From the NCBI GenBank assembly GCA_000165345.1, contig CM000434.1, positions 1-64,000 on the forward strand: a stretch of 64,000 nucleotides of DNA, written 5' to 3'. Shown piece by piece: positions 5,418 to 23,934 of this stretch. Under the pieces are notes generated by a model that saw only the letters and a list, made by a program, of their open reading frames with translations, searched no databases and was not told the DNA's origin. The translations under genes were made by a program, and so were the position numbers. Numbering within the stretch: position 1 is the stretch's first letter; the number at the start of each line of letters is the position of its first letter.

Positions 5418-6053
5418 TTAATCACAATATTTGCAATGTTGTCTTTTTCCAGCTCCTGGTTTTATAAAATGTTGGGCACTTGGGTTAGTAGGACAATTTG
5501 TAGAGAGACATCCCACAGGTTTAACAAGTGGACGACAATTAGGGTTATAACAAGGAGGTATTTTCCCATCTCCCGCAGAAGAACGATAACAACTTCGAGG
5601 CATACTAGTACTAAGCGGTTTAATACCACGAAAACCCGTTGAATTCCCACCAGTTTGTCCGGAAGATGAACCTGTAAATTGCGTACTAGAACTTGAGGAA
5701 GTCCCAATAGCTCTACTTAATAGCCGAGCAAGACCTAGTGAGGAGCCAATAGGAATAGGTCCTTTTTGCGGATTTTGAGGACCTTGTTTGAATGGAACAT
5801 GTTTCTGTTGTGGACCAGAAGGACCAGATACAGTATTACGTAATTGAATAGCTGTTTTAAGAATCCCTCGACCTCCAGTTCCAGCTAGGGGACGATAGAA
5901 ACCAGACTTCAATTTTATAAAGGAATACTTGGAGGCAAAATCTGGATTAATGGATGTATTTAAAAAATCATTAAAGAAAACCTGATCTGATAAAAGCAAT
6001 AAGAAATTGAATAGAACAGTGAAAAACGAAAACAACTTCAAATAATTAAACAT
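5418..6053 (-). CDS. Secreted Gly/Ser/Pro-rich protein (211 aa) with a Cys-rich C-terminal tail; hypothetical
   Basis: ATG verified at 6053. N-terminal signal peptide MFNYLKLFSFFTVLFNFLLLLS. Middle region is G/S/P/Q-rich (GSSSGQTGGNSTGFRG..., GPSGPQQ). C-terminus carries 8 Cys (PCYNPNCRPL...GCLSTNCPTNP...HCKYCD). The ORF is conspicuously GC-richer than its flanks. An E2F-like site lies 80 bp upstream. Confidence 0.6.
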   Translation of the reverse strand: MFNYLKLFSFFTVLFNFLLLLSDQVFFNDFLNTSINPDFASKYSFIKLKSGFYRPLAGTGGRGILKTAIQLRNTVSGPSGPQQKHVPFKQGPQNPQKGPIPIGSSLGLARLLSRAIGTSSSSSTQFTGSSSGQTGGNSTGFRGIKPLSTSMPRSCYRSSAGDGKIPPCYNPNCRPLVKPVGCLSTNCPTNPSAQHFIKPGAGKRQHCKYCD

Positions 6054-6128
6054 TCTTAATAATTGTAAACTTCTTTTATAAGTGGAAGAAAAGATATTGC
6101 CGGGGAGAAACAGTTAGAGGGGAAACGC

Positions 6129-6140
6129 TTTGGCGCCATA
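6129..6140. promoter_or_regulatory. TTTGGCGCCATA, E2F-like palindromic element
   Basis: About 80 bp upstream of the minus-strand gene starting at 6053. Confidence 0.5.
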
Positions 6141-8696
6141 TTACGTATCTTATCAAATTAAAGAGTGAAAAAATTTGATTGAAAACAGAACTCAATTTTT
6201 CTTAATATTTGCGTTCATCTTTCCTATGATATTGGAATTGCTTGCTTTGTGTTAATTTATGTCAAAACTTCATGAATGTTATATTTTTTTTCTAAAGAAA
6301 AAATGCTGTAATTAACTACCATTCGAATCATTTTTTTTTTAAATAAGTTTAAGTTGATGAAGAAAAATGATTTCACTAAGTGTTAAATGATTGTTACATG
6401 AAATGTTTGCTTATAATTTTTCTCATTACTTCAGAAACTAATAACCATATGTTTTTATCATAATGAGATGATATTTCTGTGAAAATTAATTTATTTTGAC
6501 TTAATTTATAATGGTTGATAAAATTTCTAATCACAAAATATTTGTACACTAACTTGCTATTTAGCCTATTATTTTTGTAACTTAATATTTCAAAATATTA
6601 TGTGGAAGAGATCGATCAACTTTGTTAATAATATATTGATAAATTGTAGCAAGTTCAATAATAAGTATTATAGCTGAAATAAGGAACGATATTCTGAGAA
6701 GATAATATTATTTATTAGATAATTATTAAATAGGTTGAAATTATTATGCTTAAATCTTGTTGTAATAATAAATTAAAGTGCTTTTTCTTATAATTATTAA
6801 AAAGGCTTGTTTAAATTACAAATTTTTTTTCGAAAAGCTAAGAATTTGTTTCCCAAAAATATCTAAATACAGAAAATATTAAATATTTTGAATTAAAAAA
6901 ATGGTTAATGATTTAAAATATAAATTATCTTTAAGGAGTCTATATTGAATAATAATGATTTAATTTATTAATATAAATTAAGATATTCATCAATTTGATC
7001 CGAAATCACAATTAAAAAAAAAGTGAAAATTTGGCAATATTTATTTTAATACAGGATTTTTTTTTCGAATTACAAAAATTACATTAAATATTTAGTACTT
7101 TTCTCATAAAGCAAATTAAATTATTTTTAATAGTTTATGTTTCTTTATCAAAATGATTAAATAGTAATTTAATTTGTTATTAAATAATCATTACATTTAC
7201 AAGTTTGAATTCATTTATTGTAATAAAGATTTATATCTATATTTTTACGTGTATAATAACTATTTTAAACATGTAAATTAGAATTAGTTAAATTTAAATG
7301 TAAAATATTAAACGAAAAAAAATATATCAAATTGATCCTTAATAAATCTAATAAATCGAGTTCAACAGATTTTGTTGAAAAAAGTGTGAGAACTATACTA
7401 TTTTCTTAACCTCTGTTTGCTGTGACATAATTCCTTTTTTTGAAATAAATTTTTTTAAAAAAAATATTATTCAACAAGAGATGAAACAAATTTTTCCATA
7501 TTGTTTTTGAATTAAATTACTTTTTGTGAATTTCAGTGAAGATTTTGTCTAATATGTTTGAGCATTTCAACAATGGGAAGTTTGTCAGTAAGACAACTTA
7601 TTCTTTTAATTAGATATTATTATTTGCAAATTTATGGATTGATACTAATCATCTAGCTACTTTAAGGCTTATAGTTAATATTTATATTATCTTTTGATTT
7701 ATTCAATTATTAAATCTTTCTTGACACTAATTTATTCTATTTATAAATATATTTATTGATATTGATGTAAATTTTTCATGAAAAAACAGAATAAAAGACA
7801 AATTCGTAAAGTATAAGATTACAAAATTTTCTATTCACTTATAGTTTTATTGAATTGTAAAATAAGTTATGAATAAATAGTTTGGAAGTTTTTTTACTCC
7901 TAAAGAAATGATGTTCAATTTTAATTATATATAATATTTAAAAGATAAATAGCTTCTTAATAGATTTTTTTAATGAGCTTAAAATTAAATGGTATTTTTA
8001 ATCATACATTATTCTCTAACATACTTCTAATAAATTCAATTGAACAATATATCCCAAAATAATTAATTAAATATATTTTTAATCCAAATAAAATTCATTA
8101 TTTATTTTGAAATAAATTTTTGAATTATATGAAGAAACAGTTATTAATTTACGAGCAAATATAATTAATTATTAATATTTGGATGGATATTTAATATATC
8201 AAATAATCATCTCTACCATACGTAAGATATGGCTTTCAAAGAAAAAAAAATATGTAAATAAATTTTCTTTGAAAATCAAGTATTTGTAATTCTAAGTTCA
8301 TCTTAAAATTGGATATTTAACTAAAATTGAAGAAAGTTGAATTTAAATTTTTTTTTTTTGCCTACATTATTAATTCAACATCAATAATAGATAAGATAAA
8401 TTCACTTAATATAATTATTTTTATCATAGGATATATTATTAATATTAAAATTGATCTTTTTTAATAAATATACTTTTTTTAGACAAAGGATAGTGATATT
8501 CAAACTGGTGACTATATTTGTTTAACAAACTTTAGTATTAATAAATCTTTATAAAAGAAATACAAATTTAATTTAGAGAAATATTAAAAATATTTAGCTC
8601 ATATGATTTAAATTTCAAAATGAAAAAACCAAAATAAATTTACAATTTAATATCACGGAAGGGGGGGAGAGAGAAAAAAAAAGTCATGAACAAAAT

Positions 8697-9899
8697 CTAT
8701 TTACTATAATTCATTACTTCTTTTACGATTTCAACATCATGAACATGACTTTCTCTTAATCCAGATGTTGTTATTTCAACATAGCTTGATTTCTTCCATA
8801 ATTCTTCAATTGAGGCAGAACCTAAATAGCCCATGCAGGATCTTAGTCCTCCAACAAGCTGATATACTACACCTTCCATTTCACCTTTATATTTAACTCT
8901 ACCTTCAATACCTTCTGGAACCATCTTGTTTTCAGGTCTTTTCTCTTGGAAATATCTATCCCCACTACCACTCTTCATTGCTCCAACACTTCCCATGCCT
9001 CTATAATACTTATAAACAGTATCGCCTATAAGTTCTTTTTCACCTGGACTTTCTTCAGTGCCAGCAAGGATTGAACCAATCATTACACTTGAAGCTCCAA
9101 CAGCTAATGCTTTTCCAATATCACCACTATATCTTATTCCTCCATCTGCAATGATCGGAATACCAAATTTACTGGCAACTGATGAACATTTCTCAATTGC
9201 AGTGATTTGAGGAACACCAACTCCTGCAACAATTCTTGTGGTACAAATACTTCCTGGACCAATTCCAACCTTTATCCCATCTGCACCATTCTCAATTAAT
9301 TCTTTTGTTGCTTCTTCTGTTACAACATTCCCAACAATTACATCAATATTCATTTTTGACTTAATTTCTTTCAAAGTTCTGATAATGTTAAGGGAATGGC
9401 CATGCGCTGAGTCTAATACAATCACATCTACTCCTGCTTCTACTAATAATTTTGCTCTTTCTATTTCATTTACACCTATTGCTGCTCCAACTCTTAATCT
9501 ACCTTTATTATCAAGATTTTCATTGCTATAAGCATCAATATTATTGTTAGACTTTGTATCTTTTCCATCTGTACTTTCTTTGTCTAAATTTTGATCTGGA
9601 GTACTTTCATTCTTTTCTAAATTAGATATCCAATTCTTGACTTTCAATACTTCATTCACCTGACTTTCCATATCCATATTTTTGTGAATAATTCCAATCC
9701 CTCCTAGTCTCGCCATTCCTACTGCCATTAAATGTTCTGTTACTGTATCCATTGCAGAGCTTATCAGAGGGATTTTTAGAGAAACATTTTTTGTTAATTT
9801 TGTTTCTAAGCTAACTTCTCTTGGTAGTACCTCTGAATAATTTGGAACCAACAAAATGTCTTCGAATGTTAAGCCTTTTCCTATGTTTTTTGTACCCAT
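8697..9899 (-). CDS. IMPDH: Inosine-5'-monophosphate dehydrogenase, bacterial-type, 400 aa, with the CBS subdomain largely absent
   Basis: ATG at 9899 verified. TIM-barrel IMPDH hallmarks are present: catalytic loop GIGPGSICTTRIVAGVGVPQ, IADGGIRYSGDIGKALAVGA, flap/C-terminal GGLRSCMGYLG. The short linker in place of a full CBS pair and the overall sequence are typical of the epsilon-proteobacterial-type enzyme used as a Cryptosporidium drug target (published locus cgd6_20, recalled from memory). Confidence 0.95.
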   Translation of the reverse strand: MGTKNIGKGLTFEDILLVPNYSEVLPREVSLETKLTKNVSLKIPLISSAMDTVTEHLMAVGMARLGGIGIIHKNMDMESQVNEVLKVKNWISNLEKNESTPDQNLDKESTDGKDTKSNNNIDAYSNENLDNKGRLRVGAAIGVNEIERAKLLVEAGVDVIVLDSAHGHSLNIIRTLKEIKSKMNIDVIVGNVVTEEATKELIENGADGIKVGIGPGSICTTRIVAGVGVPQITAIEKCSSVASKFGIPIIADGGIRYSGDIGKALAVGASSVMIGSILAGTEESPGEKELIGDTVYKYYRGMGSVGAMKSGSGDRYFQEKRPENKMVPEGIEGRVKYKGEMEGVVYQLVGGLRSCMGYLGSASIEELWKKSSYVEITTSGLRESHVHDVEIVKEVMNYSK

Positions 9900-9964
9900 G
9901 TTTGATTATTTTATCCTTAATTGAAATAGTCGATATCTAATTAATATTTATCATATAACAGGAA

Positions 9965-9972
9965 TTTGGCGC
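9965..9972. promoter_or_regulatory. TTTGGCGC, E2F-like half-palindrome about 70 bp upstream of IMPDH
   Basis: A GC island in an AT-rich 5' flank. Confidence 0.4.
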
Positions 9973-10160
9973 TTTTAACAAAGTGTCCAATTTGACATTT
10001 GTTTTATTTGGCTAACACTTTTATGTTAAAAAAAAAAATGTTAGGAATATAATTAGCTTTTAGTATATAACATTAAATATAGAATCACTTCACGTTGATT
10101 CTGTCTAAACTTTTTTACATGATCATTATTATAATTTTCACACTTGAATAAAATAATATG

Positions 10161-10170
10161 TTGGCGCCAA
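10161..10170. promoter_or_regulatory. TTGGCGCCAA, perfect 10-bp palindrome (E2F-like) about 260 bp upstream of IMPDH
   Basis: Direct reading. The identical palindrome recurs at 24211, 47491 and 57287. Confidence 0.55.
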
Positions 10171-10960
10171 TCCACTAAGCATTCAAATTATTTTTTTTTT
10201 TATAATGAAGATTATTTAACTCATTTAATTCTAGGTTGGTTAAACTAAATATTACTAGTATAATCAACTTTTAGGCTGTCTTGATTGATGTATTTCTGTT
10301 CATGATTATTAAAATTTTAGTAAAATCAACAAGAATTTTTTTTTTTTTTACAAGCAGTTAATAAAACCATTCAACTACCTTTCAGTCAATGATTAAAAAT
10401 TATTATTGAAAGACACTGCTTCACATTATATTTAATTTAAATAAAAATGCGATTCTTATTCATTTGATTAAATTACCGAAACAATGATTAATAAATTCTT
10501 TCAAATTATTTGATTTTTTCCTTCATTAATACAAGGGATAATATTTAAAAAAAACTAACAAAAATGATAAACTCATTATTTTTATTATTATTTTAAATGT
10601 ATTTAAATATCTTGATTTCAATAAATATGTTCAGTTCAATTTTTATAAAGTTTAAAAAAACGGGTTGAGTTTTGACTTATTCATTCAAATAATATGAAAT
10701 AAAGTTAATAATCAAGTCAAAATTTTGTAAAAAATAAGTCAATCAAATTTGTGATAAAGTAGAATATTTGTACAACCAAGCTTAAATAATAATTGAAATA
10801 CATATTCATTCATATTATTTCAACGATATTTAAAAAAAAAAATTAAAAATAATTACATTAACTACCCAGTTTAGAAATAAATATATTTATAATAAAGAGT
10901 AATATAATGCGGAGACTTATTATTCAAAGCAGAGATTTTGTATATTTGAATGAATAATAA

Positions 10961-11782
10961 TTAAATTATATCCTTCAACCTTTCAAACCTTGACATTCTT
11001 TTAAAGTATTCTTCTGAAATTAAAACAAGTTCTTGTTCTAAAATCCAGTTTTCCAATCTTAAGCGATAACAGTCAACTTCACCTTCTTCCTTATTTTCCA
11101 ATTTTGAAATACAGTGTAATTCATAAGAAATTGTTTTGCTTATGAGTAATTGCTCAAATTCTGACATAACTCTTCTCAAGAATGATTTTTCAACTAAAAC
11201 AAATTCTGATTCTACCAAAGCTTTACCAGCTCTTCCCACAAATCCAGTATGATTGTAAAACCTATATTGAGTTGAAACAATATTTGATTCAATTGTAAAA
11301 CATTTATTCTTTTTAAGATTCTTCTTTTCTTTCAATATTTCTGCTTTATTCTCCAATAAATCAACTAAATAAAGAATATCACCGCATTTTGTTCCATCAT
11401 GGTACTCGTTTCCATTTTCACATCTTAATCTGTAATAAACAGATAAGAAATATGAGTATTCTTTAACAAGACCAATAATTATTGAGTATTGTGGTAATTT
11501 CTGGTAACAATCTAATGCATAACTAGTATTTGAATATTTGAACAAATGGCTATTTCTTGATTCTTCTGAAGGGTTCATATCCAATATTAGTATATTTGTA
11601 AATAGAGTCGGGACTCTTTCTGTAATATTATACTTTGAATAATATTCTTTTGTTTCATTTTTTTCTTGTATGCCTTCTTTTAACGACAATAATGAAAAGT
11701 TAGAGATGCTTTCGGAATTTCTAAATCCAGTCTTTGTTAAAAAATATGTTGCAAAAAGAAATAAAATTTCAAAAATTTTCAT
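10961..11782 (-). CDS. Hypothetical secreted protein, about 273 aa
   Basis: The track start at 11800 is a TTG. The first ATG at 11782 gives MKIFEILFLFATYFLTKTGF, a clean signal peptide. The remainder has mixed composition with several Cys and no recognisable domain. Confidence 0.55.
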   Translation of the reverse strand: MKIFEILFLFATYFLTKTGFRNSESISNFSLLSLKEGIQEKNETKEYYSKYNITERVPTLFTNILILDMNPSEESRNSHLFKYSNTSYALDCYQKLPQYSIIIGLVKEYSYFLSVYYRLRCENGNEYHDGTKCGDILYLVDLLENKAEILKEKKNLKKNKCFTIESNIVSTQYRFYNHTGFVGRAGKALVESEFVLVEKSFLRRVMSEFEQLLISKTISYELHCISKLENKEEGEVDCYRLRLENWILEQELVLISEEYFKRMSRFERLKDII

Positions 11783-12446
11783 GTTATTATCGAAAAGCAA
11801 GTAATAAAGAATTCCACCTAAAATTTATTTTACTTAATTTATATTTTGTTTTTTTAATTAAATATTTGACTTAATGTTTGTTTGTCTATAAACCGGCATT
11901 ATTTTTTAATTAAATTCAATTTTGCCAATTTTGGCTCCAAACAATTTATTAAAAAAATTGTTTTCTCCCTAAAACTGTGTATTTTCCTGAATTCAATATT
12001 TTCATTTCAAATTATTCACTTTGAAATTTATTTATGTTGTGTTATACTATTGAAGTTTCTTTTTTCAATTAAGTTGATATGTTAATATTTTGACGAATTA
12101 AGTTTTCTTTAAGTCAATGCGTATTTATCAAATTCAAACCTTTTGTAACAAAGATTCCGTAAACAATAGATAAGTAGCAATTTGAGAGAATTGCCCAATA
12201 TTACATAAAAACAAAAAAGACAAATATTACACACTCATTAATATTTAGAGATAAATATAGTTTGAACTAAAAATATGTCGCTCATATAAATAATATATAA
12301 TAATCTCTTGCAATATTAAGATCAAGATCACAGAATAATTTTTATTCTCTAATACTTACTTCAAAGACCGGAATAATTATTGAACAAACGCCGCAAATGT
12401 ACAAAAGCTATTTGCTATCGTCTCACATAACTAACAAATAACACAT

Positions 12447-13025
12447 TTAAAGTTTTGTGTCATATTCATTTCCATTTACAGGAGGGGATGATGATGATGA
12501 TGAACCTGATGATGAGGAACCTGATGATGAGGAACCTGATGATGAGGAACCTGATGATGAGGAACTTGATGATGAGGAACTTGATGATGAGGAACTTGAT
12601 GATGATGAACTTGATGATGAACTTGATGATGTCACACTACTTGTGTCATCGTTGCCTTCATTGTTATCCTCATCTCCTGATTGATAGCCCTCATTACTAA
12701 AGTCAGGACCAGAAGTACCGAGAGATGGAATTCGAGAAGTAAGTCTTCCATCTGAGTCTCTCATCTGTAGACCACCTGAATGTAAGTGTTGGAAATCAGT
12801 TGGATTACCAATTACCATTTCTGGTTGCTCTTCTTCTTCACCGCCGGAGCAACAGCAAAGTGCCCTTCTAAGCCTCTTGCAAAATCCACCACCGCATTTA
12901 ACCTTGACAAAAGAAAGTTCGTAGTAACTACTTGATGCAAGATCAGATTCAGTAGAAGTAAAGCTGTAAAAGACAGCAATAACAGCCAATATTGAGATAA
13001 TCGACAAATTTGATAAAAATTTCAT
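12447..13025 (-). CDS. Mucin-like secreted Ser-rich glycoprotein, 192 aa
   Basis: ATG at 13025 verified. Signal peptide MKFLSNLSIISILAVIAVFYSFTST. A Cys cluster (CGGGFCKRLRRALCCCSGGEEEE). A C-terminal run of about 55 residues, a long poly-Ser tract followed by four SSSSG units, typical of O-glycosylated mucins, followed by PPVNGNEYDTKL. Confidence 0.7.
   Translation of the reverse strand: MKFLSNLSIISILAVIAVFYSFTSTESDLASSSYYELSFVKVKCGGGFCKRLRRALCCCSGGEEEEQPEMVIGNPTDFQHLHSGGLQMRDSDGRLTSRIPSLGTSGPDFSNEGYQSGDEDNNEGNDDTSSVTSSSSSSSSSSSSSSSSSSSSSSSSSSGSSSSGSSSSGSSSSGSSSSSSPPVNGNEYDTKL
12487..12630. repeat. 15-bp coding minisatellite (gaacctgatgatgag x4, then gaacttgatgatgag x about 4, plus GAT/GAA triplets), about 9 units
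   Basis: Direct reading of tandem 15-mers. On the coding (minus) strand the unit encodes GSSSS. Strong candidate for length polymorphism. Confidence 0.85.
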
Positions 13026-13186
13026 TTTTGGGAAAAAAATAAAAACAATGTAAAAAGTGATTGAACTGAGGAAATTCTTTTATTAAGTTTCATGTCAGTG
13101 AATATTACTTATAATTGATAATATATTGCTTGAAGTTAATGTAAATAGACCCATTGTTATAATAACAATAGATCAACGTCCAGTAT

Positions 13187-13245
13187 CGCCTCCCGCTTAT
13201 GCCTTTAAATGGTGGTATCGCAAAAAAAAACGTCATGGCGGCAAT
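13187..13245. promoter_or_regulatory. GC-rich promoter patch with CGCCTCCCGC and CATGGCGGCAAT (E2F-like GGCGG elements) 160-220 bp upstream of the mucin-like gene
   Basis: Direct reading. Confidence 0.4.
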
Positions 13246-14407
13246 GCAAAACAGGGTGGAGGGAAATGCAAATGCGTCCTATTTTGACAGTAGTTTAGGA
13301 ATAAAATTTGGCAAATGAAAATTCGCACTTAGTAATTTGACTGATTATTACTTTTTTTAATTCTTTTTATTTTTTGAAATTGATTTTGAAAAGATTGAAA
13401 TCGTAATTAGGCGAGGTACTCAAGATATCCATAATTCTAGAATTTAATTATTGAAAAAATAAAATATTAGAGCTAGATTGTCAGAAATATATTAGAAACA
13501 TGAAATAAAATTAGTGTCATTATTTAATCAATATTGTAAATTAGAGAGTTGAATAAGTGAGTTACTATTTCCAATTCTTGCTTCAAGTTCCTTTAGGAGC
13601 GAATAATTAGGATTTATGAAATTATCAAAAAAAAACACAATCAATGGTAATATTTAATTCGACTTTTTCCACAAAAATACAAGATCTTGAAAATTTTTGG
13701 GATCATATTTACACATTATTTCTTAAATTTGATAATTAAACATTATATGAAATTCCAAGTAATATTTCGTAATCTTTTATCTGAATTTCAAATGTTAGTA
13801 ATTACTTTTCTGAAACATATCTTTTGTAAAAACCGAAAGATATTATGATACTGTAATAACACATATATTTATCCACGCATAGATGAATGGACCAAAGCCA
13901 TAATTACTCTGAGATATTAGTTTAAACATTTGAAATAACTTCAGTATAAAACATATAATTAAAGCGAAATTTAATAAAAAAAAATATATCATTACACAAC
14001 TTTATTAATTTTTTTTTTAACAAATATAACCATAAAGTATAAAAAGTTTTCATCCATTCTCATATTCTGTATTAATTACTTTTCTAGATATTGGATTTGA
14101 AGTTGAAGATAGTGGTAGTATTTGAGATAGTAGAGTGCGATTAAACTTCAGAATAAGGATATATCCTACAATTATAATCCATTAAGTGTTTTTTGCAAAC
14201 TTTCTTTTATCTTACAAAGAAGTTCGATTTTTGTTTAGTTGATTTGGTTACTCTTTTAAGATTCAATAGACAATCTCAAAATAATTTGGTTTGAAATATA
14301 TATCTCTATATCTATTTCTTGACAAAGAACAAAAGATTGTATTTGGTTTTTAATTAATAATTTTTGCTTACTTTTTTTATAATTCAAATATTAATAATTC
14401 TTTTTAA

Positions 14408-15313
14408 TCAAAAAATCCTGTTTGTTACCGCTGATTTGATTGTTGAGGATGGTGGTGGTGGTGGTGGTGATAGTGGTGGCGGTGGAATTGCCGTTGATTG
14501 ATTCTCTCTCCTCTTTTCTACTGATTCAGGCTCGTTATTAGTCTCAAAGTGGCCTGATTGATTTGAAATTGATTTTGCTCTTGCAGAATTACCAACGAGG
14601 CCATATTTATTAAGATAAGGATTGAAAGTAGGCTTTTTCGGTATTTCAGGAGGCGTTTTTTCAAAAGAATATATTGATGAATTAGGTGGAAGAAATCTAG
14701 ATCCAGTTCTCCTAAGGGATCTTAATCCCAAAGTAATTTCTTCTTTATTAATGATTAGTGATGAACTTTTGAATCCTATTTGACTATTTGCAACTTTCTT
14801 TTGTGGGTTTTGTACAGTGCTTTGCTTAATTGTCGGATGTAGATTTGGAGCTTCATCAAAATGATGAATATTTGTTTTAAGAACTGGGGCAGGATAAGAA
14901 GGTGGAGGAGGAATGTCTGATAATTGTTCCATACTGCTAACATGACTTTGCTGTCCTGGTTCTTGTGGCTTCTGTCTTTGATAATCATTAAAACCATCAT
15001 ACCTATAGTTCAAGTATGGATTAATGATCTTTCCCTTCTTTTTTTTAGACGAGAAACAACAAGAGCAAGAACTATCAGATTCATATTCATCTTGAGTGGA
15101 TTGAAGATTTTCATCAATAATATTTTTTCCAGGATAAGAAGATTTAGATTTTTGATATTGAGTATTATCTGACCTATGATATTTTTCGTCTCCTGGATGG
15201 CCTCCATCTCGTTCAACAAATGTTACACTTAAATTTGATCTTTGTCCGTTTGTTTTTAAACAACTTTTAGTTGGAAGAGTTTGAGGGGTATTAGAATTTG
15301 ATATAAAATACAA
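14408..15313 (-). CDS. Pro-rich low-complexity hypothetical protein with PPPP and a C-terminal PPPPLSPPPPPP tract. The 5' end is unresolved.
   Basis: The track start at 15313 is a TTG. The reading frame stays open upstream to about 15423 with no ATG. The first in-frame ATG is at about codon 118 of the track ORF (SSMEQLSD). Either an upstream mini-exon exists (a speculative candidate is MASYY + GTAATG around 15557-15542) or the protein is shorter than drawn. Confidence 0.4.
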   Translation of the reverse strand: MYFISNSNTPQTLPTKSCLKTNGQRSNLSVTFVERDGGHPGDEKYHRSDNTQYQKSKSSYPGKNIIDENLQSTQDEYESDSSCSCCFSSKKKKGKIINPYLNYRYDGFNDYQRQKPQEPGQQSHVSSMEQLSDIPPPPSYPAPVLKTNIHHFDEAPNLHPTIKQSTVQNPQKKVANSQIGFKSSSLIINKEEITLGLRSLRRTGSRFLPPNSSIYSFEKTPPEIPKKPTFNPYLNKYGLVGNSARAKSISNQSGHFETNNEPESVEKRRENQSTAIPPPPLSPPPPPPSSTIKSAVTNRIF

Positions 15314-17416
15314 ATTTGAAGCTCTGTTTGTTGAATCTATCCCATTATTTTGAGTATGAAGTTCATCTTCTTCGTTGTCAGAGTTACAACAACATCCATT
15401 TTTAATATTACATTTTTAATGAAGTTTAATCTTAATTAAAGAATATTCTAAAATTTGATTTTGCAAGCAATAATTTTTCACACTATATTCATAAAACACT
15501 ACAATAGAAACAATTTGTGTGAAAAATAAGAATACATTACTGTAGTAACTCGCCATCTTAAATCATTTATTACATTAGTATTCCAGTTTTCTTTATTTCA
15601 ACCATTCAATAGCAGTAAATTTAAAATACAAATATTATAATAAGAATTATTGGCTCAACTGAATTCAGTGGGGCTTTATTTTAAATAATTGTGAATAAAA
15701 GACATATTTACAGTGCTAATCCAAAACCTAGTATCTTTAATTTTTATTTGTATCTTATTGGCGCAATTTCAGAAAAATTAAATGCAAATTCATCTCCTAA
15801 AAAGACTTTTTTTTCTGAAATATATTCCTTTTTGTTGAAAAAAACTCATTTGTTATCGTAATATATTTGATTAAGTTAATGTCTCTTTTTTGTTCTCATT
15901 AAATTTTGCAGTTTTTCCAGTTTTTTTTTCAATTTTTTCCACTTTTAATTTCTTTGATAACTATGATCTGTGTGTTACTTCACTACATAGAAAATTTTAT
16001 TTTAAATCTAATGAATACAAAAATGACCTTTTGTATATGTAACAAATTTAATTGTTTCATTATTTTAATTTTATATTTTTAATATTTAATTTTAAGTAAC
16101 TCATGTATAGTAGTTTGTAAATATGAAAATGTAAAGTTAACAAATTTAATAACTAAACAGTAGAAAAGAGAATTAACATTACAGAAATATTAACTTTGAA
16201 AAATTTTAAACTATTATATTTATACTTTGAAATTATCAATTAGAGTATATTTTTAGTTTATTTTTTCTTTTATTCAATTTATATGATCTAAAATCAAATA
16301 AAGATAATATATAAATTGCAATAATATTCTATTAATAAATTAATTAACTAGTAATACTATGGTTGAACTAAATTTTAGTTAAAATTATTAAGCATTATCT
16401 CCGCATTATACTATTTTAACGTTTATTTGGAATTAATAACAGTATTATTTAACAAAAACTAATTTTGTTGTTTTATAGGTAATATACTCAAAACGGTCCT
16501 TTTTCAATCAAAAAAAAATTATAGATTTTATTTGACATTTAAATTTAACGAAAATATAAAATTTTAATAATTTAAAAATATAACTTTTCATTGCGTTTAA
16601 TAATTGTTTGAAATTACTAACTACTCATATTTATATATATATAATTTAAATAGTGATATTCATTTATGATTTCAGATATTTATAATATTTTAATAAACAA
16701 TAATTCTAAAACAATTAGATCTTAAAGTTTTAATAAATTTAGAATAAGTAAAATGGAATCTATTGGATTGATTTTTGTTCATTTTAATATCTTTTTTTAA
16801 TAAAATGATCATTACTTTGTTTAAATATTATATTATGCTAGAGGTTTTTAAAAACGAATCAATATTATCATTTTTTTAATGATTTCTAGCAAAATTTATC
16901 TTAATCATCATTGAATTGTAAATAGTTAATGTAAAATTAAATTAATGCGTGATTTTTTTTTTCGTAAACAAATAAACAGAATTTAACTATTTTTTTTAAT
17001 TTACTATTTATAAATATTTCATTATAAATAATATCCTTGGTTATTTTTAAAACTTACCAAAATACATAAATATTTATATAAAAACACATCTCTGTTAAAT
17101 TTTAGTTACTACAAAATACAAAATCTACCCAAGAAAATAAAAGTTTTTGTTGCTAATATATATACGCAAATAGTTATACAATTCAAAGAGATATACATGA
17201 ATTTTAGTAAGAATTATTTTATTAGTAGTATTTAACAAGTATTTCCATCCTCAAACAACGCAAAATTTTAATTTTCATTTCTGAAGAAAAATATTCGTTT
17301 TTTCCAAAGAAAATAGTAGACAAATTTACTGGTTATATTACGAATTCTTTTTTCTTTCCCCATTTATACTTTACAAAAAAAAAACCGATTTCAAATAAAG
17401 CTTGTCTGGGAAGATG

Positions 17417-17426
17417 TTGGCGCCAG
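17417..17426. promoter_or_regulatory. TTGGCGCCAG, E2F-like element about 390 bp upstream of the 1562-aa gene
   Basis: Direct reading. Confidence 0.5.
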
Positions 17427-17814
17427 AACTGCTTAATAAAGATTCAATATTGTTGAAGAAATTCAAGTTAATATTAGTTATATTAAGTTAAAAACTACAA
17501 ATTTAGTATAGATTTTGGATACGTTTATTTAATTCATTTTTGTTTGATATTCTTAATTTAATGGACGTCAAATTTTTATTAATGTATTGTTTAAATTATC
17601 ACGAAATGTGGATACCGACATCTCAATATATGATCTAATAATGGGTATGAAGAATACATGGAAAAGAAAAAATAGTGGCGATACCGAGTATTACATAGTT
17701 TTGAAAAATATTAAATAAGATAGTATAAGATTTTTTTTTAGATTTAAGTTAATAAGTTGCTTTGGCCCATATATAAAGATAATGGTTTGATAGTAATTTC
17801 GTTCTGGAATTGAA

Positions 17815-20800
17815 ATGATTAATAAATATATTAGCAAAAAAAAGCTTACCATTCTAATACACCTGTTTATAATATATTTCCTTGTAATTTATAATAATGA
17901 ATGGAATTCTCTTGATTCCTATTATTTAAAGTTTTCACATAACAATAGCTTATTAAAAGTTAAACCAAAAAAACATCTTGGAAAGTATTTAGCTAAAATC
18001 AAAAAGGTAATTCCAACAAAAAAACCATCTAAGCCATGTTCATGGGAAACAGTTGGTCCTGCAGCTCGTGGTTTAACATGCAGTGGAAGTGTTCACATGA
18101 CTACTAGGATGGGAAAAGATTCTACAGTGAAGAAAAATGAATTAGTAGCTAAGATAGAGTATAATGGAAGCAAACAAAATTTAATTAAAGAGAGTATTCG
18201 TTCGCCATGCCTAGGAGTTGTTCAGGTGATAAATCCTAATTTTGGGTCTAACCACAAGATTGTAATTGTTTGTCAGGCTATAGTTAGTGTTAAAGAAACA
18301 GAATTGTCCTTTTCAGATGGAATTTTTACCTACACTTTTGATACTAGGCTGATGTTAGGTAAAACAGCTGTTACAATGTCAGGTTACCATCAATCTTCAG
18401 CGGTTTTACATTCTCAAGTTCAAGTAAAAAAGCCTGTTGGAGTTTACACTCCTGATACTGAATCACAAGCAAAGACTACAGAAAAAACATACACAGCTTG
18501 TACTGGATTATTGAAAGAATTAAAAACTCAAAGAATAACAGCGCCTGGAACTATAATAGTTACAGAAAATTGCAAGAAACCTTTTTGGGTCATGGTTCAT
18601 GAGAGAAATCAACCACATGCTGCTCAAGATATTGTTCCTAGTTACTCTCCTTTGTATCCTTCAGGAATTATTTATCCTCAATCGCCAATTACTTTACCAG
18701 GAATGGGCTCTTCTTCTTATGGAATTCCACCTTCTCAAGGAACACCTTTTCCAGGATCTCTTGTAACTGGACCTTTTTCTATTTCGATCAGACAAGTTTC
18801 ACATCTATCTATTGCAGAAATAAAGGTTAATGAAAAAGGAAATACACAATTCTCAAAGAAATCAGGATATGTTACTCAAGCAAATTTTGGGCATTATCAT
18901 TCTCAAGATTCTCAAACAGGTTTAATGAAAACTTACCTTGTTCCACTTCCATGTTTAGGTTTTTTAACCTCAGTATTTGAGGGAGAAGTCTCTCCTGAAT
19001 ATACTATTGCTCAAGTTATTTGTAATTTTCAAGACTTGGATGTCAATGCACCTGAATCAATTACTAGTGATTGGGTAACTCCAAAAGATAGAGACCTTGA
19101 TTGCATTTATTTAACTTCAACAGGTATGCAAACGGAAATCAGAGTAGCAGACGGTGCGAATGGTATTCCAACTATTGAAACAAGGTTTGTAAAATCAAAT
19201 TCAATGGCATTTGCAGGTGAAATAGTTGGAAAATTTAAATGTAATGTTGGATCAAAGAATGAAAAAGAAGTGGTATTATTTTCCCCTTGTACTGGCCCAG
19301 CAAATTCGGCTGAAAACTCAAAGACTCAAATGAAACAAGTTTCTTCTCATTCTCAAATATTTACAGTTGGCTGTACAATGCCTTTAGATCCTAAAGATAA
19401 GTTTGAAAAAATGGTTCTTGACCAAACCAATTTTAGACAATTATCAGCAGCCCTCAGCAAATGTATTTCATATAGATTTAGAGGCAAAAAAGTTTTTGTT
19501 GTCTCTAATTCAAAATCTACATTTATGGAACTTAATTCTAGAGTCAGGTCCGAAAAAAAAGTTACAAAAGGTGCGAGTATTGGTAAATTTACTTGTATTA
19601 TTGATGGCAGTGTGTTTAGTGAAGAACTTAAATCAGATATTTCTGGTGTTGTTGTTTATGCAATTGAAGATAAAACTCAAGTAGGCGAAGATGTTGTAAT
19701 GCTTGAAATTAAATCTGATGCAAAGTGGCAAATTGCTAAACCAACTGTTACTCTAGTTGGACAACTAGGTGATGTATTCACTACTAAGACTGATCCACAT
19801 AAATCAATTTCTCTTCAGATGTGGGAAAATGCTTACCTCTCTTGGAAAAGAAATGATTTCAAGTATCTAGTACCGCATGCTACTCAGTCTTTAGCTTCCG
19901 ATCCTAATTGGAAAAGTGGGGATCAAATTATTCAATTACCTCATTTACTTCAAAACCCTAACCCCCCTTCTCCAACACATGTATTTTTACAATCAGGTTA
20001 TTCCCAGAGTTATGGTGGTGTTTTTATTCAAGAAGAAAGTAGGGGAGGGCGTTATATTAGAAGGGTTGGAGTAACTAGAACAGCTCATGTTACTTTGACT
20101 GAAATCGAAGAATGTGTGAAAGATGCGCCGCTTGGAACAGTTTCTCTGCATTCCTACGGGGCCCCTACAATGATACAGGTTACTTGCCCATGTACTGGTG
20201 TAGTTACTTCATTACTTAAGCATAAAGTTGACGTTTCTTCCGGTCAACAGATCCAAGCTGGTCAAACATTTGCAGAAGTCACTTGCAGAAAGAGTACAAT
20301 CGCATGGATGGATAATCCAAAGCTTCTCATCAAAACTGGTCAGAAATCTCATACAACTAAAAAATTTACAGAAGTTCAAGGACTTGGTACGCCGCTATAT
20401 CCTGTAGAAAGTGGTGATGAGATTACCATCTACTCAAAGGTCCCTGGTATCTTCAGAATTACTTCTAAAGATCAGAGACTTGTACAAGAAGGACAAGCCA
20501 TCGGCGCATTCGTTTATTCATTAGGATTAGAATACAATGCCATGGTGTATGTTACATCGCCATGTACTGGAAAAATGACTTATCCCTCAAGTTCAATAGA
20601 AACAATGGATATTTCAGAAAGTTCTATTGGAGGATTGAAAATATGTTCTGTATTATGTAGTTTAGTTGCAAGAATTGAACAAGTCAGTTCCAATGAGCAG
20701 CAATTATATTTTAACTATGTTTATTCTTCTTTTGGGTTAGAAGGCCAGGAAAAATGTTACAAGGCTACAGCTCGTGCTGGAGTAAAAATTATTTATACTC

Positions 20801-22503
20801 CAACCATACTCTTATCTTCTTCTGAATCTTTGAATGTAGAAGCTGGAGATGAAATTGGATTTTTGGTTCTTGATGAAAATCGTTCTTCACAAGTCATTAT
20901 GAAAACTCCTTGCTCTGGCGTTATTAAAGGTCCTGCATCTCTCAAGATGAAATCAGGAAGTACATTTGCTGCAGGCGATATTATTTTCAAAGTTTACTGT
21001 AGCTCTATTAGTACTCCTGTAATTGGAGATTTGCCTTTGGCCCCTCCTTTAAGTGCTTTAAGTGCATCTCCTATCCAGTATTTACATAATGATGGGTATG
21101 ATTTTGTTATTACTTCCAACCACTGCAAAATTAGCTTCAAAAATGATGGTATAATCGGTACAGTTGGAGAAAAAGAAACTGTAGGAAAAGCATCATGCAC
21201 TAGTTCAACTAATACCCAAATTGATGTTGATATAGTCAACCAAAACCCTGGTAGTAATATCTTCTTTTTAACAATGGCTGCTCACGGCCAATTAGTATTA
21301 TCTGGAACTACGATCATGATGGTTAAAAAGGATACGGGGAAACAAATAATAGATAGGATCCCTCAAGGAACTCACACCGGCAGTTTAGTTACGAAGACTG
21401 GAGATTTGACAAAAAATGGTTATATTTGGGCAAATATGGCTGGTACTCCTATTTTCAAAGATAAACCAAAAATTGATCTCGTTACGGTAGGTGAATCAGT
21501 AGGAGTTTTTGTTACTCAAAATGGTGGAAATCCAGAAAATATTATTCCTCCCTGTTCAGGAGCAGTTCATGCTCCAAGCGTAGCCTTAGTTAATAATACT
21601 CTTACTTTGCCTGGAACTGAAATACTTAGGGTATTTTGTGGTTCACCTTCAGTCCCATCTCAAGCTATGGAAATGACTCCTCCAACTGTTCAACAACTTT
21701 CTGAAGAAGATAGAGATCCAATTATGACAAAAAATATGCTCGGGATATACACATTGTCTTGGCCGACGTATAATGGTATTGTTCAGTACTCTCCCAACTG
21801 GATTGTTTACACGCAAATTGTTCTTCAGGAAGGAACTTCATTTGGAACTTTTATTTACACTGATGATAATGGAAAGTCTAAATCTGCAAATTTGATTGCT
21901 TCCTGTAATGGAAGGCTGGACAAGAGTGTCGCTTCTAAAGTAGATGGAAAAATGGTTAAAGCAGGGGAGAGTGTTATTTCCAAAGTACACTGCGTAAATA
22001 TTCGCTATGTTGATAGCTCTTTGAGTGTATTTGATGATGCTAGCGCAATTTCTTCCCAATTATCATCTGGAAGTTCTTCAGGGTCATCTTCATCAGCACC
22101 ACCACCACCAACACCATCATCGCCTTCATCATCATCCTCATCACCTTCATCTAAACCCCAAAAACCTTCAAAAAAACCCGAAAAACCAAAAAAAAGCCCA
22201 AAGGCTTCATCTCCAAAAGTTAAAAAGAAAAAAGAGGAACCTGATTATACACAAGGTGATTCAGAGAGTTATTCGATGGAAGATGTTAAGAAAAGGCTAT
22301 TAAAAAAAACAGGCTTTTCTGGCTCTGGACCGAGAAGTGATAGTGCCAGTGCTGGGAGTGGATCAAACTCTTCACCACCACCACCACCACCACCACCACC
22401 GCCACCGTCATCATCATCTTCACCGTCGCCACCGCCTCCTCCACCTCCACCGCCACCACCACCACCACCACCTCCACCACCGCCACCTCCTCCACCTAAA
22501 TAA
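17815..22503 (+). CDS. Large secreted or type-II membrane repeat protein (1562 aa). It has an N-terminal hydrophobic anchor, at least 10 degenerate modules of about 100 aa each carrying a [ST]PC[STLN]G...C two-Cys 'hybrid-motif-like' core, and a C-terminal Ser/Pro/Lys-rich region ending in poly-Pro.
   Basis: ATG at 17815 verified. N-terminus KLTILIHLFIIYFLVIY. Recurrent motifs: RSPCLGVVQVINPNFGSNHKIVIVC, FSPCTGPANS...FTVGC, TCPCTGVVTSLLKHKVDVSSGQQIQAGQTFAEVTC, TSPCTGKMTYP...GGLKIC, KTPCSGVIKGPASLKMKSGSTFAAGDIIFKVYC, IPPCSGAVHAPSVALVNNTLTLPGTEILRVFC, ASCNGRLDKSVASKVDGKMVKAGESVISKVHC. The C-terminus has two poly-Pro runs (P11 and P25) bridged by SSSSSPS, about 45 residues in all. The continuous 4.7-kb ORF is far beyond chance in 30%-GC DNA. 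Confidence 0.75.
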   Translation: MINKYISKKKLTILIHLFIIYFLVIYNNEWNSLDSYYLKFSHNNSLLKVKPKKHLGKYLAKIKKVIPTKKPSKPCSWETVGPAARGLTCSGSVHMTTRMGKDSTVKKNELVAKIEYNGSKQNLIKESIRSPCLGVVQVINPNFGSNHKIVIVCQAIVSVKETELSFSDGIFTYTFDTRLMLGKTAVTMSGYHQSSAVLHSQVQVKKPVGVYTPDTESQAKTTEKTYTACTGLLKELKTQRITAPGTIIVTENCKKPFWVMVHERNQPHAAQDIVPSYSPLYPSGIIYPQSPITLPGMGSSSYGIPPSQGTPFPGSLVTGPFSISIRQVSHLSIAEIKVNEKGNTQFSKKSGYVTQANFGHYHSQDSQTGLMKTYLVPLPCLGFLTSVFEGEVSPEYTIAQVICNFQDLDVNAPESITSDWVTPKDRDLDCIYLTSTGMQTEIRVADGANGIPTIETRFVKSNSMAFAGEIVGKFKCNVGSKNEKEVVLFSPCTGPANSAENSKTQMKQVSSHSQIFTVGCTMPLDPKDKFEKMVLDQTNFRQLSAALSKCISYRFRGKKVFVVSNSKSTFMELNSRVRSEKKVTKGASIGKFTCIIDGSVFSEELKSDISGVVVYAIEDKTQVGEDVVMLEIKSDAKWQIAKPTVTLVGQLGDVFTTKTDPHKSISLQMWENAYLSWKRNDFKYLVPHATQSLASDPNWKSGDQIIQLPHLLQNPNPPSPTHVFLQSGYSQSYGGVFIQEESRGGRYIRRVGVTRTAHVTLTEIEECVKDAPLGTVSLHSYGAPTMIQVTCPCTGVVTSLLKHKVDVSSGQQIQAGQTFAEVTCRKSTIAWMDNPKLLIKTGQKSHTTKKFTEVQGLGTPLYPVESGDEITIYSKVPGIFRITSKDQRLVQEGQAIGAFVYSLGLEYNAMVYVTSPCTGKMTYPSSSIETMDISESSIGGLKICSVLCSLVARIEQVSSNEQQLYFNYVYSSFGLEGQEKCYKATARAGVKIIYTPTILLSSSESLNVEAGDEIGFLVLDENRSSQVIMKTPCSGVIKGPASLKMKSGSTFAAGDIIFKVYCSSISTPVIGDLPLAPPLSALSASPIQYLHNDGYDFVITSNHCKISFKNDGIIGTVGEKETVGKASCTSSTNTQIDVDIVNQNPGSNIFFLTMAAHGQLVLSGTTIMMVKKDTGKQIIDRIPQGTHTGSLVTKTGDLTKNGYIWANMAGTPIFKDKPKIDLVTVGESVGVFVTQNGGNPENIIPPCSGAVHAPSVALVNNTLTLPGTEILRVFCGSPSVPSQAMEMTPPTVQQLSEEDRDPIMTKNMLGIYTLSWPTYNGIVQYSPNWIVYTQIVLQEGTSFGTFIYTDDNGKSKSANLIASCNGRLDKSVASKVDGKMVKAGESVISKVHCVNIRYVDSSLSVFDDASAISSQLSSGSSSGSSSSAPPPPTPSSPSSSSSSPSSKPQKPSKKPEKPKKSPKASSPKVKKKKEEPDYTQGDSESYSMEDVKKRLLKKTGFSGSGPRSDSASAGSGSNSSPPPPPPPPPPPSSSSSPSPPPPPPPPPPPPPPPPPPPPPPPK
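22374..22497. repeat. (CCA/CCG/CCT)n trinucleotide tract encoding the terminal poly-Pro
   Basis: Direct reading: two blocks of nearly pure CCN codons. The same DNA read in other frames produces the spurious His-rich and Val-rich ORFs in the track. Confidence 0.8.
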
Positions 22504-22635: not shown

Positions 22636-23934
22636 TTAGTTTTTTTTATCTTTCAACTTCTTTAGGCTGACAATTCTGTCACATACAGTGGGATGAGATA
22701 AGTGGATAAAACTATAAATAGGGTCGAATATCATGCAAGAACTTGATTTCTTTGAAAGTCTAAACAGTGAATTTGCAAGAAAATCCCCAAATCCAAGATT
22801 AAATGAAAACTCATCAGCTTTATACTCAGCATGTTGAGACATGATAGAATGAAGAATTCCAACAATTGAGCTGAAAGGACCCAATACATAGGAGAAAACA
22901 AGGAGAGATAGAACTAAATTCCTACCTCCAAGTTTTGGATCTAAAGAGAAACCAAATGACAAGTAAAGTCCATTCCATGAAAACGTTAAGTGGAAAATGA
23001 AAAGAGTTACAAATGTTTGGATAAATGAAAAGAACAATAGTTTGTAGTTATCCCAGTTCTTCCAGTGGCCTATTTCATGCCCTATAATTGCAACTATCTC
23101 ATCTTGGGGGAAATCAAGAATGGTATCATATAAAATAATAGATTTAGATTTGAATGCACCTGAAAAGAATGCATTTCCATGATTCGATCTGAGAGAAGCA
23201 TCCATTTGATATAGATTCTTTAACGGGAAATTAACATCTTTGCAAAGTTTACTGATTTTTTCTGCAAGTTCTTGATTCTCAACTGGAGTGAGTTTGTTAA
23301 AAATAGGGACAATAATAATTGGATATATTATTGAAAAGATAAATATGAAACCAAATTGTACTAGAGCAATATATACATAAAAGTATTTACCTGTATTATT
23401 AGCAATGTATATCATTACAGAAAGCAGAATCGTTCCAAATACAGTAACAAGAAGTCCTGACTTGATCTGATCCATTATAAATATCTTTAATGTTGAGTTA
23501 TTAAAACCATATTTCTCTTCCAAAACAAACGTGTAGTAAAGATCGAAAGCAAGACTAATAGGATAATCTAATAACATCATTGCCCCACAAAATAATAAAG
23601 ATGAGACGTATTCATTCGAACTAATTCTTGTGTAAATAATTTCCCACATTAATGGATAAATTACATAAAAAACAAATAGCCAGTTAATAACAAAAGTGAC
23701 TGCTCTACTAATCAGTCCAAATACCATCTTTGAATTGCTGTATGATTGGGACTTCTTAAATTCTTCATTGGAAACTTCTCCACAGTCTTTGTAGGCATCT
23801 AATATATACTTAGGAATCTCTTTGATATCATAACATTTTTTTTGTCTAAGATCAACGTATAAGTAAAGTAAATATTTGATTAAGTTGATCAGAAAGATTC
23901 CCTGAACTAATTTATTTCCGATTATTGTTTGCAT
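22636..23934 (-). CDS. STE24: CAAX prenyl protease 1 (Ste24/ZMPSTE24, peptidase M48), 432 aa
   Basis: ATG at 23934 verified. Multiple TM helices. Zinc site IIGHEIGHWKNWDN (HExxH) followed by a downstream conserved acidic region. Length and topology fit the Ste24 family. Confidence 0.88.
   Translation of the reverse strand: MQTIIGNKLVQGIFLINLIKYLLYLYVDLRQKKCYDIKEIPKYILDAYKDCGEVSNEEFKKSQSYSNSKMVFGLISRAVTFVINWLFVFYVIYPLMWEIIYTRISSNEYVSSLLFCGAMMLLDYPISLAFDLYYTFVLEEKYGFNNSTLKIFIMDQIKSGLLVTVFGTILLSVMIYIANNTGKYFYVYIALVQFGFIFIFSIIYPIIIVPIFNKLTPVENQELAEKISKLCKDVNFPLKNLYQMDASLRSNHGNAFFSGAFKSKSIILYDTILDFPQDEIVAIIGHEIGHWKNWDNYKLLFFSFIQTFVTLFIFHLTFSWNGLYLSFGFSLDPKLGGRNLVLSLLVFSYVLGPFSSIVGILHSIMSQHAEYKADEFSFNLGFGDFLANSLFRLSKKSSSCMIFDPIYSFIHLSHPTVCDRIVSLKKLKDKKN

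Follow-up and report, generated by a model that had tools for sequence, protein, structure and literature searches.

The stretch examined here, the first 64,000 nucleotides of contig CM000434.1 (GenBank assembly GCA_000165345.1; hereafter the window), comes from chromosome 6 of Cryptosporidium parvum, and it raises the question of what kind of protein is made by one open reading frame (ORF) at 17815-22503 on its forward strand. The ORF starts with ATG, encodes 1562 amino acids (aa) followed by a stop, needs no intron, and at 35-38% GC contrasts with the AT-rich window. Quantitative PCR (qPCR) primers for cgd6_60 (Mauzy 2012) match it exactly at 21905-21926 (+) and 22074-22095 (-), and those for cgd6_30, 40, 50, 70, 80 and 90 fall on either side of it in gene order. 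This identifies the ORF as cgd6_60; the orthologue in C. hominis is Chro.60016. An earlier reading of the letters alone (the original prediction) had been unable to place the architecture in any described apicomplexan adhesin family. In fact it carries the name "protease" or "secretory protease", ranks among the most polymorphic genes of the genus and, in C. hominis, is the mark of a biallelic recombination block located at the 5' end of chromosome 6 (PMC4407392, PMC7034008), a block that the literature links to virulent C. hominis subtypes. We found no literature description of its domain architecture, or of a hybrid motif in Cryptosporidium. Here, we show that most of cgd6_60 consists of eleven copies of a degenerate module, predicted to adopt a lipoyl/biotinyl-like fold, and that its "protease" label appears to be without support.

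The internal repeat of cgd6_60 is statistically real. Plain self-BLAST returned the identity match only, but a windowed, masked self-BLAST gave consistent in-register pairs, the best joining aa 1223-1307 to aa 1008-1102 (E 2e-6). A hidden Markov model (HMM) seeded with five segments and iterated converged on 11 modules, all of which could be aligned with MAFFT over a core of about 84 columns. When leave-one-out HMM scores were compared with those of 500 composition-matched shuffles, 10 of the 11 modules exceeded every shuffle; module 9 was marginal, its score being reached by 7 of the 500. The HMM built from cgd6_60 alone also re-finds the module in related species (11 copies in C. bovis, 10 in C. 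muris and 10 in C. andersoni, with independent E-values of 1e-5 to 1e-16), and a scan of the other ORFs of the window found it in none of them. The claim of more than ten repeated modules was thus borne out, the reading of the PC[ST]G motifs as chance occurrences fails, and both peptides quoted as examples are present, at aa 791-824 and aa 1031-1062. The proposed module length of about 100 aa did not stand: the core spans about 85 aa and recurs with a period of 92-177 aa. The protein thus comprises a hydrophobic N-terminal signal segment, 11 degenerate modules of about 85 aa and a Ser/Pro/Lys tail of 166 aa, and contains 30 cysteines and ten C-[STLN]-G motifs. Its parts are as follows, with bits from the HMM and the number of shuffles reaching each score.

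17815-22503, forward strand: complete cgd6_60 ORF (ORF listing, qPCR primer matches, flanking primer order).
17815-17895, forward strand: putative signal peptide or signal anchor, MINKYISKKK-LTILIHLFIIYFLVIY-NNEW (hydropathy, orthologue N-termini).
18061-18297, forward strand: module 1, aa 83-161 (HMM independent E-value 4e-19; leave-one-out 16.6 bits, 0/500 shuffles).
18346-18582, forward strand: module 2, aa 178-256 (HMM; leave-one-out 15.1 bits, 0/500).
18583-18786, forward strand: conserved Pro/Gly/Tyr-rich insert between modules 2 and 3, aa 257-324 (47% identity to C. bovis).
18787-19032, forward strand: module 3, aa 325-406 (HMM; leave-one-out 7.7 bits, 0/500).
19114-19383, forward strand: module 4, aa 434-523, whose first half has a further Cys pair, C430/C476 (HMM; 30.1 bits, 0/500).
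19492-19725, forward strand: module 5, aa 560-637, lacking Cys1 and Cys2 and having C550/C594 instead (HMM; 12.6 bits, 0/500).
19726-20034, forward strand: conserved Trp-rich insert between modules 5 and 6, aa 638-740 (48% identity to C. bovis, 35% to C. muris).
20035-20295, forward strand: module 6, aa 741-827, holding the sub-threshold Pfam Biotin_lipoyl and Peptidase_M23 matches (HMM; 20.7 bits, 0/500).
20407-20667, forward strand: module 7, aa 865-951 (HMM; 27.7 bits, 0/500).
20746-21009, forward strand: module 8, aa 978-1065, the first AlphaFold target (HMM; leave-one-out 0/500).
21109-21339, forward strand: module 9, aa 1099-1175, the weakest, lacking Cys1 and Cys2 (HMM; 5.9 bits, 7/500).
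21394-21648, forward strand: module 10, aa 1194-1278, the high-confidence AlphaFold target (HMM; 32.5 bits; predicted local distance difference test, pLDDT, 88.8).
21733-22002, forward strand: module 11, aa 1307-1396 (HMM; 21.2 bits, 0/500).
22003-22374, forward strand: first part of the low-complexity tail, with Ser-rich, Lys/Pro-rich, short charged and Ser/Gly stretches (composition; TCA and AAACCC tandem repeats).
22375-22497, forward strand: poly-Pro tract P11-SSSSSPS-P23 (CCN microsatellite; Tandem Repeats Finder).

What fold these modules adopt is the next question, and the original prediction of a hybrid motif fared unevenly. In a Pfam search of the whole protein, Peptidase_M23 (E 0.013) and Biotin_lipoyl (PF00364; E 3.7) matched the same hairpin at aa 788-827, the latter with 7.9 bits against a gathering threshold of 22.1. 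Single modules searched against Pfam and NCBIfam gave noise save for weak matches to Biotin_lipoyl (two), Peptidase_M23 (two) and RnfC_N (one); only 2 of 35 isolated modules reached E <= 10 with Biotin_lipoyl, the best at 0.034. Since similarity to this family is below threshold, the assignment to a fold rests on predicted structure together with weak profile matches. A profile of the 11 modules found only a chance match, Cif (E 1.3), among PDB sequences. With an alignment of 35 paralogous and orthologous modules, all seven PDB matches at E <= 10 were to proteins with a hybrid motif; the adaptor protein BesA scored best (E 0.0055), and E2 lipoyl domains and BCCP appeared at E 0.07-0.9. Using hhalign, the same alignment fell in register with seven canonical lipoyl/biotinyl domains (P 7e-4, probability 26%), while an FN3 control gave P 0.73.

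Structure prediction points the same way. AlphaFold modelled module 8 from an 11-row alignment with a pLDDT of 65, and AlphaFold2 modelled module 10 from the 35-module alignment with a pLDDT of 88.8 and a predicted template-modelling (TM) score of 0.80. The best fold matches of module 10 were BCCP, E2 lipoyl domains and GcvH, and the independent, lower-confidence model of module 8 returned a list of nearly the same fold class. Further down these lists stood GcvH, periplasmic adaptor proteins, NqrA/RnfC, the sandwich-barrel hybrid motif (SBHM) inserts of RNA polymerase and EIIA-Glc. Foldseek probabilities were 0.99-1.0, with a target-normalised TM score of 0.72 to BCCP and weak E-values. In these models the module is a flattened beta-barrel of about 70-85 aa that overlays lipoyl/biotinyl domains and has their strand order, with at most one short helix of 7 residues and no alpha-helical hairpin. 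We therefore describe the modules as predicted barrel-sandwich-hybrid (lipoyl/biotinyl-like) domains: the fold inferred by the original prediction finds support in the models, the PDB profile matches and the hhalign comparison; Pfam gives no family-level match.

The cysteines of the modules are of particular interest. In the 35-module alignment the near-invariant positions are glycines (Gly82 in 35 of 35) and two cysteines, Cys80 (30 of 35) and Cys112 (29 of 35), here called Cys1 and Cys2. Both are present in 29 modules, neither in five and one alone in a single module. Such co-occurrence is what a disulfide would produce, though its statistic is inflated because orthologous modules are not independent observations. 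In cgd6_60 itself, nine of the 11 modules have both: one Cys opens the "PC[ST]G" strand and the other ends the last strand. In lipoyl domains the strand that follows P-C-x-G lies next to the last one and runs antiparallel to it, and a disulfide between them is therefore geometrically plausible; as judged from the sequences, Cys1 and Cys2 probably form a disulfide staple in each module that has both. The sole unpaired exception is module 9 of C. muris (aa 1130-1223), likewise that of C. andersoni, with a Cys at Cys1 and none at Cys2; this lone residue may pair with another nearby Cys.

The Cys pair was proposed to stand in place of the lipoyl Lys, and this has held up: the two cysteines co-vary, while at the hairpin tip (columns 64-73) a Lys occurs in at most 7 of 35 modules, with no DKA or AMKM flanking context. 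In the hhalign alignment the carrier Lys falls where the module has no consensus. No conserved His or Asp column exists among the 35 modules. With the defining Lys and the His/Asp residues absent, the modules are neither cofactor carriers nor an M23 protease.

Searching 1.84 billion representative proteins with a profile turned up orthologues in Cryptosporidium alone, plus two repeat-driven chance matches, a bacterial Ig-like repeat protein and a Sushi-repeat protein, both of which were rejected as relatives. The orthologues are those of C. bovis (XP_067182954, "protease, partial", 1389 aa, 43% identity), C. andersoni (cand_024910, 1361 aa, 32% identity) and C. muris (CMU_028170, 1589 aa, full length), a 207-aa C. 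canis fragment named signal peptide-containing protein, and a further Cryptosporidium fragment of 311 aa. Modules and inter-module segments are similarly conserved across species, and across three species 25 of 30 Cys are kept versus 2 of 27 His. The inserts at aa 257-324 and aa 638-740 are as conserved as the modules (47-48% identity to C. bovis) and have no Pfam match; they could be additional domains.

The N-terminus bears on where such an array would reside. As the original prediction had it, a signal or anchor is apparent: the sole strongly hydrophobic 19-aa window (Kyte-Doolittle >1.6) lies at aa ~6-29, with a core of 16 aa directly after KKK, and the orthologues of C. bovis and C. muris begin with an equivalent hydrophobic stretch. 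Hydropathy scanning of the whole protein found no further transmembrane-like segment, hydrophobic C-terminus or glycosylphosphatidylinositol (GPI) signal. By these sequence features the N-terminus would be either a signal peptide, presumably cleaved, or a type II signal anchor.

The opposite end of the protein accounts for its use in typing. The 166-aa tail is 30% Pro (50 residues), 28% Ser (47) and 11% Lys (18), and runs from a Ser-rich, mucin-like stretch (aa ~1411-1445) through a Lys/Pro-rich basic stretch (aa 1446-1476), a short charged and a Ser/Gly stretch to P11-SSSSSPS-P23-K. Of the two poly-Pro runs described originally, P11 (aa 1521-1531) is as stated and the presumed P25 counts as P23 (aa 1539-1561), so that the tract is 41 aa plus a Lys rather than about 45 residues. 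TCA and AAACCC tandem repeats occur in the tail DNA, and Tandem Repeats Finder reports a period-3 array at 22373-22496 (41 copies) of CCN trinucleotides encoding the poly-Pro. The nested primers of the published typing marker C6-60 match at 21979-22001 (+) and 22823-22844 (-), which fits the published product of ~866 bp, and the "CAC" microsatellite of this marker is the CCN array encoding the poly-Pro tract of cgd6_60. C6-60 typing thus reads length changes in the poly-Pro/Ser tail. The marker distinguished 21 haplotypes among 53 C. hominis isolates, the highest among chromosome 6 loci, and showed 98 indel-inclusive polymorphic sites versus 3 segregating single-nucleotide polymorphism (SNP) sites; tail length is therefore isolate-specific. 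In C. muris the protein likewise ends in a Pro/Ser-rich tail, which contains four runs of the IPPPPP(L)IPSP type; two distant species therefore have a Pro-rich tail in common, without conservation of its sequence. Loss of the tail in C. bovis and C. andersoni was considered and dropped, as both entries are partial and full-length C. muris has a Pro-rich tail. Identity of cgd6_60 with the "DZ-HRGP" typing locus, suggested by the Pro-rich tail, was rejected, that marker lying at ~917 kb on chromosome 6. A basic, possibly amphipathic segment of the tail, SMEDVKKRLLKKTG (22255-22320, aa ~1481-1502), has a counterpart, SAIKLRKEIMSLKKSVKFE, at the C. muris C-terminus and may be the only sequence-specific element of the tail.

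What, then, does cgd6_60 do? By qPCR its transcript is low at 2-6 h, ~10-100-fold higher at 12 h and 36 h, and falls by 72 h (Mauzy 2012). The protein has been quantified by tandem mass tag mass spectrometry in excysted oocyst material, under the product name "Uncharacterized protein"; this sample contains sporozoites as well as walls. Taking these observations with the architecture, we consider it probable, with a fair margin of doubt, that the invasive stages, sporozoites and merozoites, secrete cgd6_60 as a multi-domain glycoprotein without enzymatic activity, which acts as a stalk, a binding scaffold or an adhesin. A signal sequence would deliver a chain of 11 small beta-domains of lipoyl/biotinyl-like fold that have lost the cofactor Lys, and in the oxidising environment of the secretory pathway or outside the cell the array could serve as an extended stalk, resistant to proteases, or as a scaffold for binding. 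Parallels would be the Ig, FN3, Sushi and TSR arrays of other adhesins and, in bacterial periplasmic adaptors, the lipoyl domains that carry no cofactor. Contacts would most likely be made by the variable tips of the beta-hairpins, the site of the Lys in lipoyl domains. The tail, with its Ser-rich, Lys-rich and poly-Pro parts, may be a low-complexity spacer, probably O-glycosylated and partly in polyproline-II helix, whose length would shift by microsatellite slippage and so add to the extreme polymorphism of the gene.

Several points weigh against this picture. Similarity to lipoyl/biotinyl sequences is below every curated threshold, and the fold depends on AlphaFold models made from the 35-module paralogue/orthologue alignment. 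The shared ancestry of orthologous modules, noted above, makes the pairing of Cys1 and Cys2 look stronger than it is. The two conserved inserts could carry a real activity. The two transcript peaks, at 12 h and 36 h, rest on a single set of qPCR measurements whose replicates are noisy, and the proposed function is read from architecture.

A more ambitious form of the same idea, which we put forward only tentatively, is that the Cys-bearing, cofactor-less lipoyl-like module represents a new extracellular domain family, so far confined to Cryptosporidium. The chain of 11 modules would then have a structural or adhesive role at the host-parasite interface or on the surface of sporozoites and merozoites, with the hypervariable tail exposed to, and diversified by, host immunity. 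We know of no eukaryotic adhesin class built on the hybrid-motif fold; if this were true, cgd6_60 would represent the first, as far as the literature searched suggests.

The same detection in excysted material, which includes walls, could instead indicate a structural component of the oocyst wall, Cys-rich and extensin-like in its Ser/Pro-rich tail, that is cross-linked into the wall. Like the COWPs, cgd6_60 is modular with paired cysteines, and Ser-Pro(n) tails resemble those of plant and algal wall glycoproteins. The excysted sample holds sporozoites too, however, and the supplementary tables of a proteome enriched for oocyst walls did not show the cgd6_60 identifier, itself a weak negative. 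Oocyst wall proteins are made late, by female stages, and the peaks of the cgd6_60 transcript at 12 h and 36 h, with a fall by 72 h, fit merozoite formation rather than that timing. We thus regard a role in the wall as unlikely.

More doubtful still is that cgd6_60 reaches the host side of the interface, or the host cytosol itself, as an effector whose poly-Pro tail, in the manner of FH1 domains or ActA, recruits profilin, Ena/VASP or SH3 proteins to remodel host actin at the pedestal. The idea draws on the P11 and P23 runs at the extreme C-terminus, the four Pro-rich runs of the C. muris orthologue, the high polymorphism of the gene and its position 5 kb from cgd6_40/MVP1, an exported microvillus effector. 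Against this, a folded part of some 1,300 aa in which 25 Cys are conserved implies an oxidising, and therefore extracytosolic, location, and there is no transmembrane segment that could place the tail alone across a membrane. The length of the tract is also free to vary, as the 98 indel-inclusive versus 3 SNP sites indicate, and the tail is flanked by Ser-rich mucin-like sequence of a type typical of extracellular Cryptosporidium glycoproteins. The profilin/SH3/EVH1-binding type that the original prediction saw in the tail fits poorly with such a protein.

The published label would make cgd6_60 a secreted protease, of the M23/LytM zinc-metallopeptidase type. This is the product name of C. bovis XP_067182954 and the wording of PMC4407392 and PMC7034008, and Pfam does give a Peptidase_M23 (PF01551) match at aa 803-827 (E 0.013). 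That match covers 25 residues of the hairpin common to hybrid-motif folds and scores 16.2 bits against a cut-off of 28.7. Furthermore, the 1562 aa contain one HxxxD and one HxH, neither kept in C. bovis or C. muris, few His are retained across species, no His or Asp column is conserved among the modules, and the recent proteomics table gives "Uncharacterized protein". A protease is thus very improbable. That the modules are genuine lipoyl/biotinyl cofactor carriers of a metabolic complex has almost nothing to commend it beyond the fold matches to BCCP, E2 lipoyl domains and GcvH, given the unconserved tip Lys, the missing (E/D)xDKA or AMKM context, the placement of the carrier Lys in a region without consensus, the signal sequence, the paired Cys, the eleven tandem copies and the absence of a catalytic partner domain.

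As a probable scaffold or adhesin, cgd6_60 can be compared with known systems. It has in common with the lipoyl/biotinyl carriers (PF00364; BCCP, E2, GcvH) the predicted single hybrid motif fold, and differs from them in having no modifiable Lys, a Cys pair, a putative secretory signal, 11 tandem copies, no enzyme domains and scores below the cut-off. Bacterial periplasmic adaptors (BesA, MacA, MexA, AcrA, CusB, HlyD, EmrA) contain a lipoyl-like domain split by an alpha-hairpin and accompanied by beta-barrel and membrane-proximal domains, whereas in the eukaryotic cgd6_60 the domain is uninterrupted, present 11 times and equipped with paired Cys; the models lack the alpha-helical hairpin and Pfam gave no HlyD-type match, which sets cgd6_60 apart from that class. 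The SBHM arrays of the RNA polymerase beta' subunit (cyanobacterial Si3, E. coli beta' G/G') are cytoplasmic, without disulfides and inserted in an enzyme subunit, and they have no sequence similarity to cgd6_60. With Peptidase M23/LytM the module has the hybrid-motif hairpin in common, seen as the 25-residue sub-threshold Pfam match, and this is the source of the "protease" label. Apicomplexan adhesins and wall proteins (TSP/TRAP, COWPs, gp900, gp40/15) resemble cgd6_60 in having a signal peptide (putative in cgd6_60), arrays of small paired-Cys modules, a Ser/Thr/Pro-rich mucin-like stretch, expression timed with the formation of invasive stages and high polymorphism. Unlike theirs, its module is not a TSR, EGF, Apple, Kazal or COWP type I/II domain (Pfam found none of these), and beyond its hydrophobic N-terminus it shows no transmembrane or GPI signal.

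The gene, its polymorphism and the hybrid-motif fold were already known. The apparent novelty is a eukaryotic protein, secreted, in which hybrid-motif domains without a cofactor and with paired Cys stand in tandem, and which would extend the known uses of this fold. The lack of support for the "protease" label also appears to be new. In place of "protease" or "uncharacterized protein" stands a testable architecture of eleven non-catalytic modules of predicted lipoyl fold, with probable disulfides and a slippage-prone tail. Given the conservation of the modules among the orthologues compared, all from Cryptosporidium, and the presence of the protein in excysted oocysts, cgd6_60 is a reasonable candidate for tagging, knockout and antigen studies.

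The surroundings of cgd6_60 are subtelomeric. Irregular CCTAAA telomere-type repeats fill positions 1-845, and the window is therefore a chromosome end; about 17 kb separate these repeats from cgd6_60, so that "beside the telomere", as the original prediction had it, is too close. Many of the repeat units are irregular (CCCTAAA, CCTAAAA, CGTAAA and others), which may be long-read assembly noise. Among the ORFs nearby are those for IMPDH, an M48 CAAX protease and an RPD3-type histone deacetylase; HDAC1 is cgd6_80 (PMC12246861). Secreted and/or polymorphic genes follow one another over 5418-22503 (the CP56 marker region, cgd6_40, cgd6_50 and cgd6_60), with the bacterial-type IMPDH (cgd6_20, 8697-9899) interleaved among them. 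The CP56 marker, at published chromosome 6 coordinates 5451-6129, overlaps the ORF at 5418-6053. The cgd6_40 qPCR primers lie at 12708-12842, in a reverse-strand region of about 12415-12945 that is ~5 kb from cgd6_60 and coincides with the published chromosome 6 coordinates (12415-12945) of the older typing marker MSC6-7; cgd6_40 is MVP1, a recently described effector exported to host microvilli. By primer mapping, cgd6_50 is the ORF at 14408-15313 on the reverse strand (301 aa), with the proline runs PPPPSYP and PPPPLSPPPPPPSS. It is a predicted secreted protein with a ratio of nonsynonymous to synonymous substitution rates (dN/dS) of 0.97 (PMC6532270), and a second Pro-rich secreted protein therefore adjoins cgd6_60. 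Finally, in the Iowa II-based primer pairs for cgd6_30, cgd6_50 and cgd6_70, one primer each has no exact match in the window (11219, 14819 and 23065), and the isolate sequenced here therefore differs from the 2012 reference at these subtelomeric genes.

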